Numbered from the stretch's first letter, positions 7,265-58,507 are shown. The stretch: DNA of 64,000 nt from Dehalococcoidia bacterium (GCA_029936815.1 JAPYRX010000004.1:20423-84422); one strand, 5' to 3'. A program made the numbers and translations. The notes: a model not told the origin generated them from the letters alone.

Positions 7265-7891
7265 TCAATTGTTCAATATTTCGTTAAATTTATTCAATGA
7301 ATCTATAGGGTTTTGTGATTTAATTATTGCAGAAACAACACATATTGAATCAGCTCCTGAATCTATCACAGATGAAGCGTTATCAATATTTATTCCACCT
7401 ATGCCAACAATTGGAATATCAGATAATTTGTGAGCTTCTTTAATCAGATTTAACCCTACAATATTTCTATCTAATTTACCCATTGTGCTTGTTTCAAAAA
7501 CTTTACCTATAGCCATATAATTTACTCCTTGAGTAATTGAAGCATTGATTTCATTAATATTATTATTTGAAGTTCCAATTATTTGATTTGTATTCATTAT
7601 TGTCTTGCAGTATTCAATTGAATTATCATTTTGTCCAATATGGACTCCATCTGCTTTTACTTCTTTGGCTAAAATTGGAGAATCATTAACGATAAATGTA
7701 ATATTATATTTATCACATATTAATTTAATATTTTTAGATATAGTCACTTTATCTTCGAAATTATTTTTCTTATCTCTATATTGGATTATACTTATGCCTG
7801 ATTTTGCTAGGTCAGAGCATAATTTAAATATATTATTTGTTTCACCAGGGTCAACAATTGTATAAATCCCTTTTATTATTTTATCATTCAT
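7265..7891 (-). CDS. thiE: Thiamine-phosphate synthase
   Basis: 208 aa with TIM-barrel ThiE patterns (IIQYRDK, ADGVHIGQND, VGIGGI). It ends in TGA. Its start overlaps rnhB by 8 nt. Confidence 0.85.
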   Translation of the reverse strand: MNDKIIKGIYTIVDPGETNNIFKLCSDLAKSGISIIQYRDKKNNFEDKVTISKNIKLICDKYNITFIVNDSPILAKEVKADGVHIGQNDNSIEYCKTIMNTNQIIGTSNNNINEINASITQGVNYMAIGKVFETSTMGKLDRNIVGLNLIKEAHKLSDIPIVGIGGINIDNASSVIDSGADSICVVSAIIKSQNPIDSLNKFNEILNN

Positions 7892-26015: not shown

Positions 26016-26924
26016 TTGAATACAGATTATATTCATCATAATAGTTACAGGATTGCATATCGTACATGGAATGAATACGATCCAAAAAAACCGACTTTAG
26101 TTTTTGCACATGCATCTGGATTTCATTCAATGATATGGAATGAAATAATTCAAAATCTTTCACCCTATCATTGTATTGCAATAGATTTTTCAGCTCACGG
26201 ATTAAGTGACAATCCTGATGTAGATTATAAATGGAATCAGTTTTCAAATGAACTTAAAGCATTAATTACAGAATTGAATTTAAGTAATATTATTGGAATT
26301 GGGCATTCATTAGGTGCTTACGCTATAACACATAGTACTGCCACATTGAATGAAAGATATGATGGATTAATTTTATTTGATCCTTCGATTTTCACGAAAG
26401 ATAAATATTTAAACAAAATAAGTAAAAATATTAGTGCACAAGGCATTGATAAATCTAAGCCGCATCCAATAAGTAAAAGAAATAATGTTTGGGAATCTAA
26501 AAGTGAAATGTTTAATCGATTTAAAGATCGATATCCATTCATATACTGGGATAAATCTGTACTCTTAGATTATTGCGAATATGGATTGAATTATAATTCT
26601 GTAGATAAAGTATTTAATTTGTCATGTCCTCCTTGGGCAGAAGGGAGAATGATGTACGGAAGTGCAGAATACGGAATATTCGACATTATTAACTCTTTCA
26701 AAAAAGATGTATTAATAATCCGATCTGGCGGAATAAAAGCAAATAAAAACGATGATTTATTTTCTAGATCAGTTACGGATCCTGATTTGCACAAAATATT
26801 TTTAAAATCTAAAGATATACTTATAGATGAAGTGACACATTTTATTCCTCAAGAAAAAACAGAGCTATGTGCTAAAATAATAAATAATTATCTGAAAACT
26901 TTAATTAAAGGAATTACATATTGA
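26016..26924 (+). CDS. Alpha/beta hydrolase
   Basis: The nucleophile elbow is GHSLGA and the oxyanion region is FAHASGFHS. A late H (EVTHFIPQE) is present. The start is TTG. Confidence 0.75.
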   Translation: MNTDYIHHNSYRIAYRTWNEYDPKKPTLVFAHASGFHSMIWNEIIQNLSPYHCIAIDFSAHGLSDNPDVDYKWNQFSNELKALITELNLSNIIGIGHSLGAYAITHSTATLNERYDGLILFDPSIFTKDKYLNKISKNISAQGIDKSKPHPISKRNNVWESKSEMFNRFKDRYPFIYWDKSVLLDYCEYGLNYNSVDKVFNLSCPPWAEGRMMYGSAEYGIFDIINSFKKDVLIIRSGGIKANKNDDLFSRSVTDPDLHKIFLKSKDILIDEVTHFIPQEKTELCAKIINNYLKTLIKGITY

Positions 26925-27613
26925 AATATGATGCAATTATATTTGATTTAGATGGAACATTAATTGATTATGATCACTCTCAATATTTAACTTTAAACAA
27001 ATTATTGGAATCATTATCTTGGAAATCTAATACTAAGCCTTCAATTATAGAAGCTTTTCAGCTTTGGTATAAAGAAAAACTTGAAATTTATAATCGCCCA
27101 GATTCCAATGATATTGGTTTTTATGATCAACAAAAAATTATATTAGAAAACTTTCTCGCTCATTATGGTATTATTACTAATTCAACCAAATTAGCTGAAA
27201 ACCTTATTGAACATTATAAATCTTCTTGGAGATTGTATCCCGATGTATTAGAGTGTTTGTTTCAATACGAAGATATACCGATGCATATAATTTCTAATGG
27301 TAATAGTGAATTTCAAAGATTGAAATTAACAAATACTGGGATAGATAAATATTTTGACGAAGTTCTTATTTCTGGAGATATAGGAATAAAAAAACCCGAT
27401 ATTAGAATTTTTCAAACTCTATCTGAAAAAATCAATGTAAATACAGACAAGCTCATATATATTGGAGATAGAATTGAAGTCGATGCTAAAGCTTCTTCAG
27501 ATTCTGGCATGTTAGGTATATGGATAAATAGAAAACGAATTTCTGTTGATAAGGCACCAAAATTGATCAAACAAATTTTTTCTTTAAATGAGTTGGATGA
27601 AATAATAAAATAA
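26921..27613 (+). CDS. HAD-superfamily hydrolase (subfamily IA)
   Basis: Motif I is IIFDLDGTLIDY, motif II is ISNG, and motifs III/IV are KKPD...IGDRIEVD. The start is TTG and overlaps the upstream stop by 4 nt. Confidence 0.8.
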   Translation: MKYDAIIFDLDGTLIDYDHSQYLTLNKLLESLSWKSNTKPSIIEAFQLWYKEKLEIYNRPDSNDIGFYDQQKIILENFLAHYGIITNSTKLAENLIEHYKSSWRLYPDVLECLFQYEDIPMHIISNGNSEFQRLKLTNTGIDKYFDEVLISGDIGIKKPDIRIFQTLSEKINVNTDKLIYIGDRIEVDAKASSDSGMLGIWINRKRISVDKAPKLIKQIFSLNELDEIIK

Positions 27614-27676
27614 TGAATTGATCTTTTTATATTATCAATATATATTAATTCAGTTATCATCAATAATTAAATTCAC

Positions 27677-28930
27677 TTGAAACAATCTGAAATAGATCGA
27701 ACGTCCAACAACGATAGATGGATTCTCGCTACGTTGATTTTAATTGGACACACTGTTAAACATATCTACATATCAGCCTTGTCAGTTATATTATTACCTA
27801 ATATCAAACAATCATTAAATTTATCTTCCACTACCTATGGTAGTTTATCTTTAGCAGGAAGAATCACAGGTACTATCACTACTTTCTTCTCAGGCTTTTT
27901 AGGAGATAAATATGCAAGAAGATCTGGTACATTATTAGGTATATCTTTACTTATAACTGGGATCTCTTATTTATTCTTAAGTTATTCAGATACTATATTT
28001 TTGTTAACAATTTCAATGTTAATCACTGGAATTGGACCATCTATGTATCATGCCCCAGCTTTAGCTACTTTAGCCAAAAAATTTCCTGAAAAACAAGCTT
28101 TTGCATTGTCTTTGCACGGAACAGGAGGTAGCCTAGGTGAAACTTTAGGCCCATTAATTTTCGGCTCCTTTTTGATAGCAACACTTGCTGTAGGTTGGGA
28201 ACAAGCTATGCGTGTCTCTTCTATAATTCCTATTTTGATAGGAGTTATCGGAGGATTTGGTATAAATTATTTTTTAAGAAATGATATATCAAAAAAAGTT
28301 AGTCTTACTAATTATTATTCTGGATTACAAATTATATTCACAAACAAACCCTTATTGATTCTTATAACTGCCGCTGCAATAAGAGGTATGGGAGAATCTG
28401 CACTAGAAGCATTTTTACCAGTATTTTTTCTTGAGAATTGGAAATATTCTGTTAACAGAATTGCGATTTATAAATCTTTGATGAGAGCTAGTGGTACAAT
28501 CACACAACCTCTACTTGGAATATTTACTGACAAATATTCACCCTTAACATTATTAATCCCAAGCTTATTATTTCTAGGGCTTTTGTGTCTTACTATTCCT
28601 TTCTCTAATGATATTACAATATTTTCTATTCCTCTCATTCCAATTACATTGTTAGTAATGGGGATATTTGAATTTTCTTTACAAACTATTTTTGTTTCAC
28701 TAGGCTTAGACTTAACTAAAATCAACAAAAAAGAATCTGAAGATATGAAATCAACTATTGTTGCATTAATGTGGGGTGCAATGTCATTAGGATTAGTCTC
28801 ACCTGTCATTGGAGGCATTATTGCTGATACCATAGGAATGAATTATACAATTATTTATTCTGGTATTTTAATTTTGATATCCGCATTAGCTCTGATTTTT
28901 CTTAAACTTAATATATCAAAACAAGTTTAA
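27677..28930 (+). CDS. MFS transporter
   Basis: 417 aa with about 12 TM segments. The loop motif GFLGDKYARRSG is present. The start is TTG. Confidence 0.75.
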   Translation: MKQSEIDRTSNNDRWILATLILIGHTVKHIYISALSVILLPNIKQSLNLSSTTYGSLSLAGRITGTITTFFSGFLGDKYARRSGTLLGISLLITGISYLFLSYSDTIFLLTISMLITGIGPSMYHAPALATLAKKFPEKQAFALSLHGTGGSLGETLGPLIFGSFLIATLAVGWEQAMRVSSIIPILIGVIGGFGINYFLRNDISKKVSLTNYYSGLQIIFTNKPLLILITAAAIRGMGESALEAFLPVFFLENWKYSVNRIAIYKSLMRASGTITQPLLGIFTDKYSPLTLLIPSLLFLGLLCLTIPFSNDITIFSIPLIPITLLVMGIFEFSLQTIFVSLGLDLTKINKKESEDMKSTIVALMWGAMSLGLVSPVIGGIIADTIGMNYTIIYSGILILISALALIFLKLNISKQV

Positions 28931-28954
28931 ATTCATATTCTTTATGTTAAAATA

Positions 28955-29045
28955 TTAACGCGTGATGGAGAGTAGAATTAAACTCGGCAACCTTTTACCT
29001 TTCAAGGTGCTTTGTACGTGGCTTTAAATAGCAAAGAGGTATTGC
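28955..29045 (+). promoter_or_regulatory. Candidate SAM riboswitch of the SAM-I/SAM-IV clan in the metH leader
   Basis: CGGCAACC (28985..28992) and AAGGUGC (29004..29010) flank a P3 stem GCAACCUU/AAGGUGC with the bulged A, as in S-box P3. GAGAG precedes a short P2 (GAGU 28970..73 / ACUC 28982..85). A possible P1 is CGCGUG (28959..64) paired with UACGUG (29015..20). The P3 loop UACCU (28996..29000) can pair with AGGUA (29037..41), a SAM-IV-style pseudoknot. Confidence 0.45.
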
Positions 29046-29085
29046 ATTTATTCTTCCTCAATTTATTAATTAAATAGTTTGTATA

Positions 29086-32000
29086 TTGATAAATAATAAT
29101 AAAATTACAATTATTGATGGAGCAATGGGTACATCAATACAAAACCTCAATTTAGAATCTGCAGACTTTAATGGTGATGAATATGAAGGGTGTAACGAAT
29201 ACCTTAATATCACAAGTCCTCAAAATATAGAATTAGTTCATCAATCTTTCATTAACGTCGGAGCGGATATTATTGAAACCAATTCATTTGGTGGAACTCC
29301 TATGGTTTTGGATGAATATGGATTGTCCGATAAAGCTGAAGAAATTAATTACCTAGCTTCCAAAATTGCTAAACGAGTCGCAAACAAATCTTCGAATATA
29401 TTAGTTGCTGGAAGTATGGGGCCTACAACTAAATTATTAGGACTAACACAAATTAAAACTGCAGATATTACATTTGATTATTTAATTGAAAACTACAGAG
29501 TCCAGGCTAGAGGATTAATAGATGGAGGTGCTGACTTATTATTGATTGAAACATCTCAAGACATATTAAATGTTAAAGCGGCAATAGAAGGTATTAATCA
29601 CGCTAAATCTGATTTATCTATTAAATCCATTCCCTTTGCTGTTCAATGTACTATAGAAAATATGGGAACAACATTGTCTGGGCAAGATATTGAAACTTTT
29701 TATTTAACTATTAGACATCATGACATGTTATGGGTAGGAATGAATTGTGCAACAGGCCCTAAATTTATGCGAGAGCACCTTAGAACTTTAAACCAAATTT
29801 CTACGCACCCTATAGCCCTAATTCCAAATGCTGGATTACCTGATGAAACAGGTACTTATAATGAATTACCAAAGGAATTTTCTAAAACAATTAAAGAATA
29901 CATAGATTATGGATGGGTAAATATCATTGGAGGTTGTTGTGGGACAGAACCTGCTCATATAAACGAGTTGAAAAATATTACTAAAGACAGTAATTCTGTT
30001 TTTGACGTTAATACCAATATTGATAAAATGAAAACCTCTCATTACACTACAGGGTTAGATACTTTATATGTTGATGAAGATTCAAAACCAATTTTAGTTG
30101 GTGAAAGAACTAATGTATTAGGATCAAGAAAATTTAAAAGATTAATTGAAAATGATGATTTTGATCAAGCATCAGAAATTGGGAAATTACAAATAACTTC
30201 AGGCGCTAATGTACTTGATGTATGTTTGCAAAATACTGACCGGAATGAGATTGAGGATATTAGAATTTTCCTTGAAAAATTAACATCTAAAATTAAAGCA
30301 CCTATAATGATTGACTCCACTGACCCTGAAGTTATAAAAGAATCATTAAAACTATGCCCAGGGAAAATCATAATTAATAGTATTAACTTAGAAGATGGAG
30401 AAGAAAAATTTCAAAATATTATTCCATATGCTAAAAAATTTGGAGCTTTAATAATTATAGGCTGTATAGATGAAGATAAAGAACAGGCACAAGCTATTAC
30501 TAAGCAAAGAAAACTAGAAATTGCGAAACGATCTTATGATTTATTAGTGAACAAATATCAATTCCCAGGGAATCATATTATATTTGATCCATTAACTTTC
30601 CCAATTGGAACTGGAGATGTGAATTATATGGATTCTGCGAAAGAAACAATTGAAGGAATCAGGCTAATTAATGAACAATTACCCTTAGCAAAAACTATCC
30701 TTGGTATTTCAAATGTTTCTTTTGGATTGCCAAGTAATGGAAGAGAAGTTTTAAACTCTGTTATGTTAAATCATTGTTTGAATGCCGGATTAGACTATGC
30801 AATTGTAAATACACAAAGTTTAAAGAGATTTAATAGCTTGTCTAAAGATGAGATCGATTTCTCTAATAACTTAATCTATAAAAATTCACAAAATTCTTTA
30901 GATATATTTGTAGATCACTTTAGAACTAAACCTAAACAAGTTATCACTAAAAAAAATATCCCATGGGATCAATTTCTCACTGAATCTATAATCACTGGAT
31001 CTAAAAATGAAATAATTCAAAATTTAGATAAAGGATTAAAGGAATACAAACCTCTAGAAATTATTAACGACGCATTAATGAAAGGTATGGATGTTGTATC
31101 TGAACTATTTGGAAATAATGAACTCATAGTTGCTGAAGTTTTACAATCTGCTGAAGTGATGAAAGCCTCTGTAACTTATCTTGAACAATTTATGGAAAAA
31201 TCAGATAGTTTTAACAAAGGAACTGTGATTCTTGCTACAGTTAAAGGTGACGTACATGATATTGGTAAAAATCTTGTTGATATAATTCTTTCAAATAATG
31301 GTTATAAAATTATTAATCTAGGTATCAAAATCACATCTCAAGAATTGATTCAATCATACAAAGAGCATAAACCTGATTTCATTGGTTTGTCTGGCCTTTT
31401 AGTCAAATCTGCTCAAATGATGGTAGAAACAGTAGAAGACCTTAATAAAGAACAAATATCAATTCCTATATTAGTAGGGGGAGCAGCTCTTACTGAAAAA
31501 TTTACATACTTGAAAATTTTCCCTTCATACAAAAATACTGTAATTTATGCTACTGATGCAATGTCGGGATTAAATATTATTAATTCCCTTAATGATAATG
31601 ATAAAAAAGATGCCTTATTTGAAAGAATTGATAATAAAATTAAATCATTTAAAGATAATATGATTATCAACAAAATAAAAACTAATAAATCCACTTCTTC
31701 AAAACCTAAAACTAAATTATCTGCTATATCTAATGTCCCACAACCCCCAGATTTAAAAGTAAATACATTAAAATTACCATTAGAACAAGTTTGGGACCTA
31801 ATTAATCCTGTCATGTTATTTAATCGCCATCTCGGATACAGAGGCAATTTCACAAATGATTTGAATGATAAAAATGAAAAAGCTATGAATTTGAATGATA
31901 GTGTTAAAAATGTTAAAAAAAATCTATTAGAGTCTAATGATTTTAGTGCAAATGTCGTATATAAATTTTTCAAAGCACAATCTGATAATGATGATATTGT

Positions 32001-32562
32001 TATATTTGAATCTGATAAAGAAATCGAAAGATTTAAATTCGGTAGGCAATCGGAGAAAGATCAACTTTGCTTATCAGATTATCTTAATCCGATTGATTCT
32101 AAAACAGATGATTACATTTCTATGTTTGTGACAACATTTGGCCCAAATATTAGAGAATTATCTGATTTTCACTCAAATAAAGGCGAATTTTTAACTTCAC
32201 ATATAATTTTATCTTTAGCTTTAGAAACTGCAGAATCATCAGCCGAATATATTCACAAAAATATCAGAAAAATGTGGGGAATTCCTGATCCCATAAATAT
32301 TCCAAATACAGATATCTTTAAAGCAAAATATATTGGCAAAAGATTTTCGTTTGGATATCCAGCATGCCCTAGATTAGAGGATCAATCTAAATTATGGAAA
32401 TTATTAAAGCCTGATGAAAATATTGGTGTTAATTTGACTGAAGAATATATGATGGATCCAGAAGGTTCAGTAAGTGCAATTGTTTTCCATCATCCTGAAG
32501 CTAAGTATTTCAACTTAGACTCAGAAAGTATTTATAATTTAAATAACAAATTAAATGTTTAA
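29086..32562 (+). CDS. metH: Cobalamin-dependent methionine synthase, full length (Hcy, pterin, B12 and AdoMet-activation domains)
   Basis: 1158 aa. Motifs are IIDGAMGT, GGCCGT, the B12-binding GDVHDIGKN, and a C-terminal reactivation domain (FGYPACP). Only a TTG at 29086 is available as a start, because the frame opens at 29074 after a TAA. Confidence 0.95.
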   Translation: MINNNKITIIDGAMGTSIQNLNLESADFNGDEYEGCNEYLNITSPQNIELVHQSFINVGADIIETNSFGGTPMVLDEYGLSDKAEEINYLASKIAKRVANKSSNILVAGSMGPTTKLLGLTQIKTADITFDYLIENYRVQARGLIDGGADLLLIETSQDILNVKAAIEGINHAKSDLSIKSIPFAVQCTIENMGTTLSGQDIETFYLTIRHHDMLWVGMNCATGPKFMREHLRTLNQISTHPIALIPNAGLPDETGTYNELPKEFSKTIKEYIDYGWVNIIGGCCGTEPAHINELKNITKDSNSVFDVNTNIDKMKTSHYTTGLDTLYVDEDSKPILVGERTNVLGSRKFKRLIENDDFDQASEIGKLQITSGANVLDVCLQNTDRNEIEDIRIFLEKLTSKIKAPIMIDSTDPEVIKESLKLCPGKIIINSINLEDGEEKFQNIIPYAKKFGALIIIGCIDEDKEQAQAITKQRKLEIAKRSYDLLVNKYQFPGNHIIFDPLTFPIGTGDVNYMDSAKETIEGIRLINEQLPLAKTILGISNVSFGLPSNGREVLNSVMLNHCLNAGLDYAIVNTQSLKRFNSLSKDEIDFSNNLIYKNSQNSLDIFVDHFRTKPKQVITKKNIPWDQFLTESIITGSKNEIIQNLDKGLKEYKPLEIINDALMKGMDVVSELFGNNELIVAEVLQSAEVMKASVTYLEQFMEKSDSFNKGTVILATVKGDVHDIGKNLVDIILSNNGYKIINLGIKITSQELIQSYKEHKPDFIGLSGLLVKSAQMMVETVEDLNKEQISIPILVGGAALTEKFTYLKIFPSYKNTVIYATDAMSGLNIINSLNDNDKKDALFERIDNKIKSFKDNMIINKIKTNKSTSSKPKTKLSAISNVPQPPDLKVNTLKLPLEQVWDLINPVMLFNRHLGYRGNFTNDLNDKNEKAMNLNDSVKNVKKNLLESNDFSANVVYKFFKAQSDNDDIVIFESDKEIERFKFGRQSEKDQLCLSDYLNPIDSKTDDYISMFVTTFGPNIRELSDFHSNKGEFLTSHIILSLALETAESSAEYIHKNIRKMWGIPDPINIPNTDIFKAKYIGKRFSFGYPACPRLEDQSKLWKLLKPDENIGVNLTEEYMMDPEGSVSAIVFHHPEAKYFNLDSESIYNLNNKLNV

Positions 32563-33721
32563 TATAAATAATAATATATTAAACGTTGACTCTCCTCCTA
32601 TCGACTATTTCAATAATTTACTTTCAAAAAACTCTAACCCAAATTATAATCCAATATCTTTTGGGCATGGTATTCCCAGGTTTACTCCAATTGATTATTT
32701 TGATTTTAATAATAACCCCATTTTCGAACCTTCTTCTTATAAATATAGTGAAATTAGAGGACACGTAAAAATACGTCAATTTATATCAAACAAATTAAAT
32801 TTGAAATTAAATGTCAAAGCTGACTTGGATAATTTTATTATTACATCAGGTGCGAACAGTGCATTATTTAAAGCCCTGTTTTTAAAATTAGAACAAGGAG
32901 ATGAAGTTATTGTTCCTAGCCCTGTATATTTTAATCATATTATGGCAATTCAAATGATTGGCGCTATCACAGTTGAAATTGATTCCATTGAAAAAAATGG
33001 GTTTCAACTAAATATTCCTGGAATAATCAATCAAATTAATGATAAAACTAAAGTTATCATTTTAAACTCCCCGAATAATCCTACAGGAGCTATTTATGAT
33101 ATTAATGACATTAAACATTTGTCAGAAATTTGTTTAAAGAAAAACATTACAATTATTCTTGATTATACTTATGAAGATTATATTTATGGAACAGATTATA
33201 ACCCTCTTCAAATTTTCAATTCTTTTGAAAATTTGATTATAGTAGGAAGCTTTTCAAAAACATTCGGTATTACTGGCTTAAGAATCGGTTACATATGTGC
33301 TGATCCACACCTAATCGATAATCTTTGCAAAATTCAAGATACTATTTCAATTTGCGCTCCTGTGATTTCTCAAAATATATTATTAGAGTTAATTCAATCT
33401 GAATCTAAGGCTATAAATAAAAACAAATTATCAGCAGAATTTTCCCGTAATAAATTGATTGAATTAATCAAAACCATCCCACAACTAGAATGGATCACAA
33501 CTAAGGGGGCATTTTATGCATTCCTTAAACTACCAAAAGAAATGAATTCTTGGGAATTTACTAGAGACTTAATTGTTAATAAATCTGTTTTAGTATTACC
33601 AGGTACTATATTTGGAGAAACGTGGAAATCATATATTAGAATTGCTTATGGAGCTGTAGACTCAGATGAAATTGATGAAGGTATTCATCGTATTAAAAAC
33701 TATTTAGAGGAAACTACATAA
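32555..33721 (+). CDS. Class I/II PLP-dependent aminotransferase
   Basis: NSPNNPTG and the PLP lysine motif SFSKTFGITGLRIGY are present, plus the C-terminal RIAYG. It overlaps the metH stop by 8 nt. Confidence 0.85.
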   Translation: MFNINNNILNVDSPPIDYFNNLLSKNSNPNYNPISFGHGIPRFTPIDYFDFNNNPIFEPSSYKYSEIRGHVKIRQFISNKLNLKLNVKADLDNFIITSGANSALFKALFLKLEQGDEVIVPSPVYFNHIMAIQMIGAITVEIDSIEKNGFQLNIPGIINQINDKTKVIILNSPNNPTGAIYDINDIKHLSEICLKKNITIILDYTYEDYIYGTDYNPLQIFNSFENLIIVGSFSKTFGITGLRIGYICADPHLIDNLCKIQDTISICAPVISQNILLELIQSESKAINKNKLSAEFSRNKLIELIKTIPQLEWITTKGAFYAFLKLPKEMNSWEFTRDLIVNKSVLVLPGTIFGETWKSYIRIAYGAVDSDEIDEGIHRIKNYLEETT

Positions 33722-56872: not shown

Positions 56873-58507
56873 TTAAACTTTATATACTGATCCGCCACCT
56901 CTAGGATCACTACCACCGTCTAAAGTGTTATTTTCAGGATTATATGAAACAACTTGCGCTCTAGCCATCATAGGATTATAAGGATAATCTTCTTGTACTA
57001 CATCAAAACCCAAATCAATTAGTTTATCTTTAAAATCAGTTCTGATTCTAGATTCCAAATAAACTTTTCCACTTTCTGTATGTATTCTTGGAGCAGATAC
57101 TGCCTCAGTTGGGCTCATGTCATAGTTAATCATATTTAATAACGATTGAAATACTGCACTCACTATTACAGCGCCTCCTGGTGCACCACATATAATGACC
57201 GGGTTACCTTCTTTTAAAACAATAGTGGGTACCATATTTGATCCTCTGGCTTTTCCTGGAGCTATAGAATTCAAATTTCCTGGTCTAGGATCGGCTAAAT
57301 TCATGCCATTATTATAAATAAAACCTAACCCAGGTGTAATCACACCTGACGCCCAACCCAAAGTATGTGTGATTCCAATCCAGTTACCTTCAGTGTCTAC
57401 TGAATTCACATGTGTTGTATGGCCAGATGATGAATTACCAATTTCAGGTATGATATTATTTCTAATGTCATTAATTTTATTATTAATACGATCCTCATTT
57501 AACACAATTTCATCTACTGGAATATCAACAAATTTAGGATCAGCATTATAATCTAATCTGTCTTGGTGTGATATTGACATAACATTTGCAATAATCTTTA
57601 AATATTCATAAGAAGAATGATTTTTGATTTCGGTTTGAAAAGGTTCAATCAATTTAAACATTTGTAAAACAGACATACCAGTATTTGGTGGAGGAGGAGA
57701 AGAAATTTGATAATTCAAATAATTTGTTATTAATGGATCTACAAAATCAGGTTTAGAATTTTTCAAATCATCTTGTGTTACAAATCCACCATTTTTTTGA
57801 ATATCATTGATAATAATTTTAGACAAATCACCTTCGTAGAATTCTTTCGCGCCGTTTTTTGCAATTATTTCTAGAGTATCTGCGTAATCTTTCATATTAA
57901 TTATTTCACCAGTATCATAAACTGATCCATCAGATTTTAGGTATTTTTCTTTACAACCATCAGATGCAGAAATTCTTTGATAAGTATTCGGCTGAAGTGG
58001 ATTAATATTAGACCTTAATGCGTATCCAGTTTTGAAATATTCACCCAAACGGGAATCTACAGTTAATCCTTTTTTGGCATGTTCTATACTTGGTTGAATT
58101 AATTCAGCCCAAGGCATACTACAATATCTTTTATGAATTTCATTAAATGCAGACAAAGTATTTGGAGTCATTATTGATTTATAACCAATCTCACTTCTGT
58201 AATCATCAAATTGAAATAGATTTGATACATCACTTCTTGTCACTTTATCATTAGCCCACATTTCTTCTGTACATTTACTACCAGCGGTACCAGCAAAATT
58301 AATTGCAATAGTTTTATTTAATTTTTTATCATAAATTTGAGCTATGCCCATTCCTCCTAATCCAGTCATAAAAGGATCTACAATCCATTGCATAAATGCT
58401 ACTGCCAACGCTGCATCAAACGCATTTCCACCCTCTTCGAATATTCTTGCCCCAGCTTCTCCGGCAATTGTTTGAGGGCAGGTGATAATACCTTTGTTGA
58501 CAGACAT
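56873..58507 (-). CDS. ggt: Gamma-glutamyltransferase-family Ntn hydrolase, no signal peptide (paralog 2)
   Basis: TIAGEAGARIFEEGGNAFDAALAVAFMQ...TGLGGMG is present, with the autoprocessing nucleophile region SSGHTTHVNSVD, plus PGGAVI and a C-terminal DPRGGGS. Confidence 0.85.
   Translation of the reverse strand: MSVNKGIITCPQTIAGEAGARIFEEGGNAFDAALAVAFMQWIVDPFMTGLGGMGIAQIYDKKLNKTIAINFAGTAGSKCTEEMWANDKVTRSDVSNLFQFDDYRSEIGYKSIMTPNTLSAFNEIHKRYCSMPWAELIQPSIEHAKKGLTVDSRLGEYFKTGYALRSNINPLQPNTYQRISASDGCKEKYLKSDGSVYDTGEIINMKDYADTLEIIAKNGAKEFYEGDLSKIIINDIQKNGGFVTQDDLKNSKPDFVDPLITNYLNYQISSPPPPNTGMSVLQMFKLIEPFQTEIKNHSSYEYLKIIANVMSISHQDRLDYNADPKFVDIPVDEIVLNEDRINNKINDIRNNIIPEIGNSSSGHTTHVNSVDTEGNWIGITHTLGWASGVITPGLGFIYNNGMNLADPRPGNLNSIAPGKARGSNMVPTIVLKEGNPVIICGAPGGAVIVSAVFQSLLNMINYDMSPTEAVSAPRIHTESGKVYLESRIRTDFKDKLIDLGFDVVQEDYPYNPMMARAQVVSYNPENNTLDGGSDPRGGGSVYKV

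Follow-up and report, generated by a model that had tools for sequence, protein, structure and literature searches.

A probable SAM-I/IV-family aptamer of compact form in the metH leader of a low-GC marine Chloroflexota clade

The leader of metH (about 28955–29048) in the 64-kb window, i.e. the whole stretch of DNA analysed here, is in all likelihood a compact aptamer of the SAM-I/IV family (RF01725) that controls metH (probability about 0.8). This leader matches the family in sequence and in structure, it is conserved and covaries among related loci, and in one subclade (group D, see below) it is followed by a terminator and its competing antiterminator. SAM is the presumed ligand, which fits both the setting at metH and the OFF logic seen in group D. 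The copy in the window is, on balance, probably an active switch, with OFF as its presumed sense; any particular output mechanism for this copy is doubtful at best.

A marine low-GC clade of Chloroflexota would then control metH through a SAM-I/IV riboswitch (with SAM as putative ligand) that goes unreported at the curated Rfam threshold. The SAM-I/IV family and its compact form devoid of P4 were known already, and the catalogue of riboswitch kinds is unchanged. For specialists the points of interest are the clade-wide G-C pair at the U88 position, the fact that Rfam by default misses every clade copy found, and the turnover of the expression platform, with a terminator in one subclade only.

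Covariance-model scans of the metH leader

The G+C content of the window is about 29%. The ORF at 29086–32562 (+), with a TTG start and 1158 codons for amino acids, is the gene under control: it matches the profile of MetH, the cobalamin-dependent methionine synthase (TIGR02082), at 1097.5 bits, above the cutoff of 1010.85. The MFS transporter gene upstream ends at 28930. In the leader between the two, the initial annotation had recognized the core of the SAM-I/SAM-IV clan with its P3, and had proposed a covariance-model scan and a comparison of orthologous metH leaders; both were carried out. The strings that it quoted were all found at their positions by direct check of the window.

With the Rfam gathering scores (41.1 bits for SAM-I/IV), no match was obtained in the whole window and 14 related loci. 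The permissive Rfam scan of 28880–29140 gave one credible match, to SAM-I/IV, at 28955–29048 (+), aligned to model positions 1–99 of 99 with 30.1 bits (E = 0.0034 for that search). Since cmscan suppresses overlapping members of a clan, SAM-I/IV scores better here than SAM-I or SAM-IV; the clan core is borne out, with SAM-I/IV as its best family. The orthologous leaders tested against Rfam match RF01725 as well, over its full length and at 31.8–36.7 bits, all below 41.1. As scores of 30–37 bits lie under the gathering score, the significance of the match comes from the combined evidence and not from the score by itself. The alignment recovers P1, P2, P3 and the hairpin after P1, and it sets the AGAGG tail at the position of the family's pseudoknot strand. 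The cobalamin riboswitch (RF00174) gave no match in 28880–29140, either at the gathering score or up to an E of 10, in agreement with the lack of a B12 element that had been read from the sequence.

The window contains GCAACC...AAGGTGC at a single place. The clade model R1, run on the whole window with filters off, gave 97 bits for the metH leader and 19 bits for the next match, which is coding; no second copy of the element was found in the window by this search. The next match (7624–7708, minus strand; 19.1 bits, rough E = 0.02) lies inside a 208-aa ORF (7265–7891, minus strand) and does not have the GCAACC...AAGGTGC core, and for these reasons was taken as noise. The weak Rfam match of Staphylococcus sRNA S774 at 28909–28975 (+), with 19.9 bits for a gathering score of 48 and E = 2.8, was taken as a chance match because it rests on the shared string CGCGxGAUGGAG. 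The pattern scan of viral_contigs (GCAACCTT...AAGGTGCTT) returned 111 stretches, and the 80 loci searched contained no real copy (best R1 score 22 bits).

Architecture of the aptamer

All the elements lie on the plus strand. P1 is formed by CGCGUG (28959–28964) and UACGUG (29015–29020), with the pairs C-G, G.U, C-G, G-C, U-A and G.U. In its 3' strand C29017 stands at the position of U88 of SAM-I, the model alignment placing gAUGc opposite UACGU. J1/2, AUGGA (28965–28969), is the AAGA of the family with one extra nucleotide, which appears in the model alignment as a single insertion within J1/2, and it carries the equivalent of the G-A of SAM-I (G11-A12); the variants of J1/2 in the clade are AUGGA, AAUGA, AAGGA and AAGAA. 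P2 (28970–28985) is a GAGU/ACUC hairpin with the loop AGAAUUAA, without internal loop and without K-turn; GGAGAGU is found at 28967–28973 and ACUC at 28982–28985.

P3 (28986–29011), by family the SAM-binding helix of the clan, pairs GGCAACCUU with AAGGUGCU and has a conserved unpaired A; CGGCAACC stands at 28985–28992 and AAGGUGC at 29004–29010. The P3 loop, UUACCUUUC (28995–29003), contains the 5' strand of the pseudoknot PK-2, UACCUUU (28996–29002), which pairs with AGAGGUA at 29035–29041. This 3' strand is Shine-Dalgarno-like, and AGAGGTA recurs as such a motif ahead of the window gene starting at 58507. From the end of GAGG in the PK-2 strand to the TTG start of metH (29086) the distance is 47 nt, as originally given. 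With 3 nt only, J3/1 (UUG, 29012–29014) leaves no room for a junction helix P4. The hairpin 3' of P1, GCU-UUAAAU-AGC (29021–29032), belongs to the PK-2 subdomain as its external hairpin. Further downstream, the pyrimidine-rich patch AUUUAUUCUUCCUCAA (29046–29061) is complementary to P1 5', J1/2 and P2 5' (28962–28977). With its 4-bp P2 hairpin and its 3-nt J3/1, the window aptamer has no PK-1, no K-turn and no P4.

Conservation of the leader upstream of metH

Searches with the N-terminus of MetH provided two species genomes (MAGs of marine Chloroflexota bacterium) and 15 metagenome loci, to which 7 further contigs of the clade were added through protein look-ups. The leader is present upstream of every metH ortholog of 71–97% amino-acid identity whose locus includes the upstream region. 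It occurs there in one copy per locus and on the same strand, between the same MFS gene and metH, which it immediately precedes. The conservation set consists of 20 loci with 13 distinct aptamer variants. The ortholog loci with the leader are all low-GC marine contigs, and the two named MAGs are Chloroflexota. Across the clade the position of the metH start is kept, with TTG or, in L004, ATG.

The leader, and any other Rfam match, is absent from L014, L018 and L020, whose MetH identities are 54, 59 and 53% respectively; L018 and L020 have 57–60% G+C. As these three loci have no riboswitch upstream, the sequence diversity is not widenable through metH. A single low-GC marine clade carries the element, which Rfam misses at its default threshold; adding the clade sequences would improve the SAM-I/IV family model for AT-rich genomes.

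We sorted the 13 aptamers into group A (the window and L012), group B (L003), group C (L004, L005 and L019) and group D (the rest). Across groups A, B and C, which are terminator-less, MetH identity is 76–97%. The window and L012 (97% identical) differ at 4 of the 155 leader positions, while their third codon positions differ by 8.1% in metH and by 9.5% in the MFS gene. Their sole two aptamer differences are in J1/2, and the 44 nt after the aptamer contain one difference. The leader thus has fewer differences than the third codon positions, which points to purifying selection on the whole of it, including the 44 nt that follow the aptamer.

Covariation

Alignment A3 contains the 13 distinct aptamer sequences with the structure P1/P2/P3/hairpin/PK-2. 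Standard pairs fill 91.2% of its cells, compared with 34–50% when the 3' partners are slid by 1–3 columns; the shuffle control is inflated by the relatedness of the clade sequences. Of the five helices, three (P1, PK-2 and the 3' hairpin) contain one pair apiece with two-sided changes.

The P1, the short P2 and the P3-loop pseudoknot of the initial annotation are all retained in this alignment. P1, also recovered by the family model, has a compensatory pair, 15–75 (GU in 6 variants, UA in 4, AU in 1 and unpaired in 2); its three central pairs are invariant and its top pair is mostly mismatched. The seven pairs of PK-2 are 100% paired in the 13 variants, and the terminal pair 52–98 (AU 10, UA 3) has changed on both sides, i.e. 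UACCU/AGGUA vs AACCU/AGGUU, so that the pairing foreseen between the P3 loop and the strand after the small hairpin covaries. In the 3' hairpin, the stem of which reaches 5 bp in group D, pair 78–88 is compensatory (UA 7, CG 6).

P2, which the model alignment recovers too, has four invariant pairs in the 13 variants and a fifth pair in group D only (GAGU(A)/(U)ACUC). In P3 8 of 8 pairs are 100% paired, and pair 41–67 varies one-sidedly (G.U 6, A-U 7). As they display no compensatory variation, P2 and P3 neither support nor contradict the structure. The covariation is therefore real but thin, given the narrowness of the clade and a shuffle control inflated by relatedness.

Comparison with known SAM riboswitches

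Weinberg et al. 2010 described the SAM-I-IV-variant from 473 sequences of several phyla and marine metagenomes, and defined it by the core shared by SAM-I and SAM-IV and by a P2 without internal loop. In the SAM-IV cryo-EM paper, SAM-I/IV has no PK-1, an undivided P2 and a PK-2. The window aptamer possesses the clan core, with a P3 of the form GCAACC...GGUGC with its unpaired A and a P1 closing a multi-helix junction, as well as the structural traits of SAM-I/IV: P2 has neither internal loop nor K-turn, PK-1 is absent, and PK-2 comes with a post-P1 hairpin. Its score stays below the 41.1 bits of the family, which is a threshold and not a structural trait.

The junction helix P4, which env87 and many other members possess, is missing from the window, but it is not universal in SAM-I/IV: in the founding alignment many of the compact marine sequences have no P4, with a J3/1 of UUU, CAA or AA, and the junction in the Rfam consensus of RF01725 has only 6 nt. 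One example from the founding alignment reads GCAU-AAAGAG-AGG-GAAA-CCU-CAGCAACCUAGU-UGCCA-ACUAAGGUGCUU-UUU-GAUGUGG-UU-UAAC-AGC-AAAAA-UGGCA. Compact SAM-I/IV members (e.g. JCVI_SCAF_1096627343486/670-772) and the window RNA have the same order of elements: P1, J1/2 (xxGAG), a short loop-free P2, P3 (CAGCAACC...AAGGUGCUU), a 2–3-nt J3/1, the P1 3' strand, a single G, a small hairpin, a linker rich in A and the PK-2 strand, complementary to the P3 loop. The setting is also the same, that of low-GC marine sequences upstream of Met/SAM genes. Since compact, P4-less and AU-rich members were already in the 2010 founding alignment, the architecture of the window aptamer is not new, and its compactness and AU-richness are not the oddities that the initial annotation had taken them for.

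Differences with the family nevertheless appear. The P1 3' strand is ACG[U/A]GG in the clade and AUG[U/C]GG in the family. J1/2 of the clade has one more nucleotide in its variable 5' part, or is AAGAAG; in the founding alignment J1/2 is xxGAG, its first positions being variable, and CAAGAAG occurs in one member. CAACCU is followed by U in the clade, so that the fourth P3 pair is U-A; in the founding alignment this base is G in 281 cases, A in 65 and in no case U. Finally, PK-2 of the window has 7 bp and its AGAGGU lies far from any start codon. In the founding alignment the 3' strand of PK-2 often carries GGAGG or AUG itself.

The crystal structure of the env87 aptamer of SAM-I/IV is PDB 4L81 (Trausch et al. 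2014). The env87 sequence (PMC5393176) has the same P3 core, GGCAACC / AAGGUGCU, as well as a simple P2 hairpin and a post-P1 hairpin, and its P3-loop pseudoknot likewise uses nearly the whole loop (ACGGAC/GUCCGU vs UACCUUU/AGAGGUA in the window). It differs by the presence of P4 (CACCG-GAGA-CGGUG), absent from the window RNA, and by the top of P1, which is canonical A-U / U-A / C-G in env87 and G-C / U-A / G.U in the window.

SAM-IV (RF00634) has in common with the window RNA a three-way core without junction P4, a post-P1 hairpin and a PK-2 between P3 loop and 3' tail. It differs by the internal loop between P2a and P2b and by PK-1, which joins the tip of P2 to the junction 3' of P3; the window P2 is unable to form either. 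Membership of SAM-IV was rejected on the 4-bp P2 hairpin and the 3-nt J3/1 of the window, the clan competition of cmscan having kept SAM-I/IV. Membership of SAM-I (RF00162) was rejected too: this family (S-box) has a four-way junction, a P2 K-turn and PK-1 and no PK-2, and the window has no four-way junction P4, no K-turn and no PK-1.

Expression platform of group D

In group D the aptamer is followed by an intrinsic terminator, GTCCTTCATTTTATTATAAATGAAGGAT and then seven T's (L006 2462–2489, 11-bp stem). The 5' arm of this terminator and a few bases upstream are complementary to P1 5', J1/2 and P2 5'. The resulting antiterminator, CGUGAAGGAGAGUAAU x AUUGUUGUCCUUCAUU, has an energy of -14 to -17 kcal/mol, with z = -4 to -6 relative to shuffles. 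In near-identical leaders the MFE corresponds to alternative forms, the aptamer plus terminator in L006 and the antiterminator in L010. SAM-I normally uses the 3' side of the aptamer for its antiterminator, whereas group D uses the 5' half. Since ligand-stabilised P1 and J1/2 release the terminator arm, the logic of group D is that of an OFF switch.

We propose that SAM, in a pocket formed by P3 and P1, would stabilise P1, J1/2 and PK-2. The 5' half of the stabilised aptamer (P1 5', J1/2, P2 5') would be withdrawn from pairing with the downstream pyrimidine patch. In group D the freed patch would act as terminator 5' arm, SAM thereby leading to termination and to metH OFF, i.e. a feedback repression of methionine/SAM synthesis. 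The leaders of groups A–C would still be SAM-OFF switches, with an output step other than an intrinsic terminator.

Some leaders of group D have a weakened terminator, namely L007/L008 (about 494–640 in L007) and L025/L026: substitutions of C to U or of CA to UG in the stem create G.U pairs, and L007 also has an interrupted U-tract (GGAUUUAUUAUAUUUUG). The expression platform may be drifting in this subclade too.

Output in the window lineage

No terminator with a U-tract had been seen at first reading. This holds for the window, where 28700–29300 contains no terminator-like site, and does not hold for the clade, group D having a clear one. Groups A–C keep a homologous pyrimidine patch, which in the window (29046–29061) corresponds to the terminator 5' arm of group D; the terminator 3' arm and the U-tract are absent. 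The patch of the window pairs with 28962–28977 at -12.3 kcal/mol (RNAduplex) with z = -1.4, 10% of the shuffles being as good. This helix is the MFE of the window leader, and the aptamer-constrained and free folds are nearly isoenergetic (-26.0 vs -26.5 kcal/mol).

No Shine-Dalgarno-like motif is found within 22 nt upstream of metH. About half of the long ORFs of the window have an AAGG/AGGA/GAGG motif starting 10–13 nt upstream and the rest have none, so initiation without a Shine-Dalgarno sequence seems to be common in this genome. Among the predicted start codons of the window, TTG is frequent.

The aptamer might be real and yet a relic in the window lineage, the regulation of metH having been lost together with the terminator 3' arm. 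The window has neither terminator nor Shine-Dalgarno sequence, its competing helix is statistically weak, and the two aptamer differences with L012 both fall in J1/2, a ligand-contact region, all of which is in line with such a loss. We nevertheless judge it unlikely, since the terminator-less groups A, B and C keep the aptamer almost unchanged, with compensatory changes, and the whole leader, including the 44 nt post-aptamer with their 1 difference, has changed less than the third codon positions. This conservation argues that there would be an output step in the window lineage. One orthologous leader presents coexisting terminator-bearing and terminator-less platforms, a compact system in which to follow platform turnover around a fixed aptamer.

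The output could alternatively be translational, with AGAGGU driving a short upstream ORF coupled to the metH start and SAM hiding AGAGGU in the pseudoknot. A Shine-Dalgarno sequence or the AUG is frequent in the PK-2 3' strand of family members, and AAGG/GAGG-type Shine-Dalgarno motifs are used by about half of the window genes. Candidate ORFs follow GAGG in group C (AUG at 5 nt, 7–9 codons), in group B (GUG at 4 or 6 nt) and in the window, where a frame runs from UUG at 29042 to UAG at 29077 and ends 8 nt before the metH TTG. However, the window leaves a spacing of just 2 nt, group D has no ORF at a usable spacing, and the peptide is not conserved, an indel shifting the frame between L004 and L019. 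The upstream-ORF idea fits groups B and C and fits neither the window nor group D, and we kept it only as an explanation of low probability.

Several other candidates for the output were discarded. Start-codon occlusion is unsupported: folding with the aptamer forced and the pseudoknot bases blocked changes the accessibility of the start codon only from 0.15 to 0.29, the wrong direction for an OFF switch. A Rho loading site at the G-free tract 29045–29076 was set aside, the plus strand of the window having 137 G-free runs of at least 28 nt. The octamer UGAUGGAG is present twice, at 28963–28970 (end of P1 and J1/2) and at 29114–29121 (metH codons 10–12, I-D-G-A), so that the part of the patch at 29054–29061 can pair with either copy. 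Pairing of the patch with the coding-region UUGAUGGAG (29113–29121) does appear in the constrained MFE; by inspection groups B and C have not kept this pairing, and it was rejected. Pairing with the second octamer copy is probably a coincidence.

The SAM pocket

CAAC and UGC, the equivalents of C44–C47 and U57–C59 of SAM-I, are invariant in the 13 variants. The equivalent of U7-A87 is invariant in the clade, and that of G11-A12 is kept, under an alignment anchored on P2. The equivalent of A6-U88, which in the window is G28962-C29017, is for its part G-C in 13 of the 13 clade variants (ACG in the P1 3' strand). In the founding alignment the P1 3' strand is AUG[UC]GG 361 times and ACG[UC]GG once (ACGCGG). 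The A-U to G-C change is a compensatory swap that keeps the P1 helix. In SAM-I the carbonyls of the uridines U88 and U7 face the sulfonium of SAM; a clade-wide G-C in place of the sulfonium-contacting A-U is a natural test of the weight of this contact in SAM recognition.

This G-C variant of the pocket might sense a different or broader ligand, e.g. SAH in addition to SAM. Of the two uridines with a carbonyl facing the sulfonium, the one at U88 is replaced by C throughout the clade, a state with a single instance among about 362 sequences of the founding alignment, and metH is reportedly a classical target of SAH riboswitches. Another ligand is very improbable all the same: the swap keeps the helix and was found once in an accepted family member, all the other pocket residues are kept, and the platform of group D is ligand-OFF. 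SAH riboswitches activate their target genes, and the OFF logic of group D therefore fits SAM and not SAH.

A joint reading would make the clade a distinct sub-lineage in which U88 to C goes with an altered SAM/SAH selectivity, and in which the window copy has an output without terminator or metH Shine-Dalgarno sequence. We give it a small chance. The candidate outputs in this case could be Rho-dependent termination after release of the patch, or coupling via the upstream ORF of the pseudoknot strand.

Thermodynamic folding

The folding of 28931–29100 gives z = -0.30 and an MFE that differs from the aptamer; thermodynamic folding alone is uninformative for such AU-rich RNA. A chance resemblance in an AT-rich intergenic region, with no structured RNA, would agree with this z value and with the sub-threshold model score, and is hardly credible in view of the retention of the element in every orthologous leader, three of its helices showing compensatory changes, the full-length match to exactly the family predicted beforehand, and the matching terminator/antiterminator of group D.

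Promoter and gene context

A consensus scan picked out a promoter-like site at 28926–28953 (+), TTTAAA and a TG-extended TAAAAT separated by a 16-nt spacer, which shares nucleotides with the stop codon of the MFS gene upstream. An equivalent site is present in L004 at 2350–2377, and TGNTAAAAT is also visible in the leaders of group D. The promoter predicted at 28926–28953 would start the transcript a few nucleotides before P1.

Gene order is shared by the contigs of the clade (window 26921–33721; L021–L024): a HAD-type hydrolase comes first, followed by the MFS transporter, the riboswitch and metH. An aminotransferase gene of the window begins at 32555, and its 8-nt overlap with the metH stop suggests that it is co-transcribed with metH under the same leader. 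In the high-GC loci L018 (2501–5936) and L020 (2501–5970), of 53–59% identity, the methionine synthase is split into two adjacent genes, one homocysteine-binding (with or without the pterin-binding part) and the other B12-binding/activation, whereas in the window clade it is a single 1158-aa protein.
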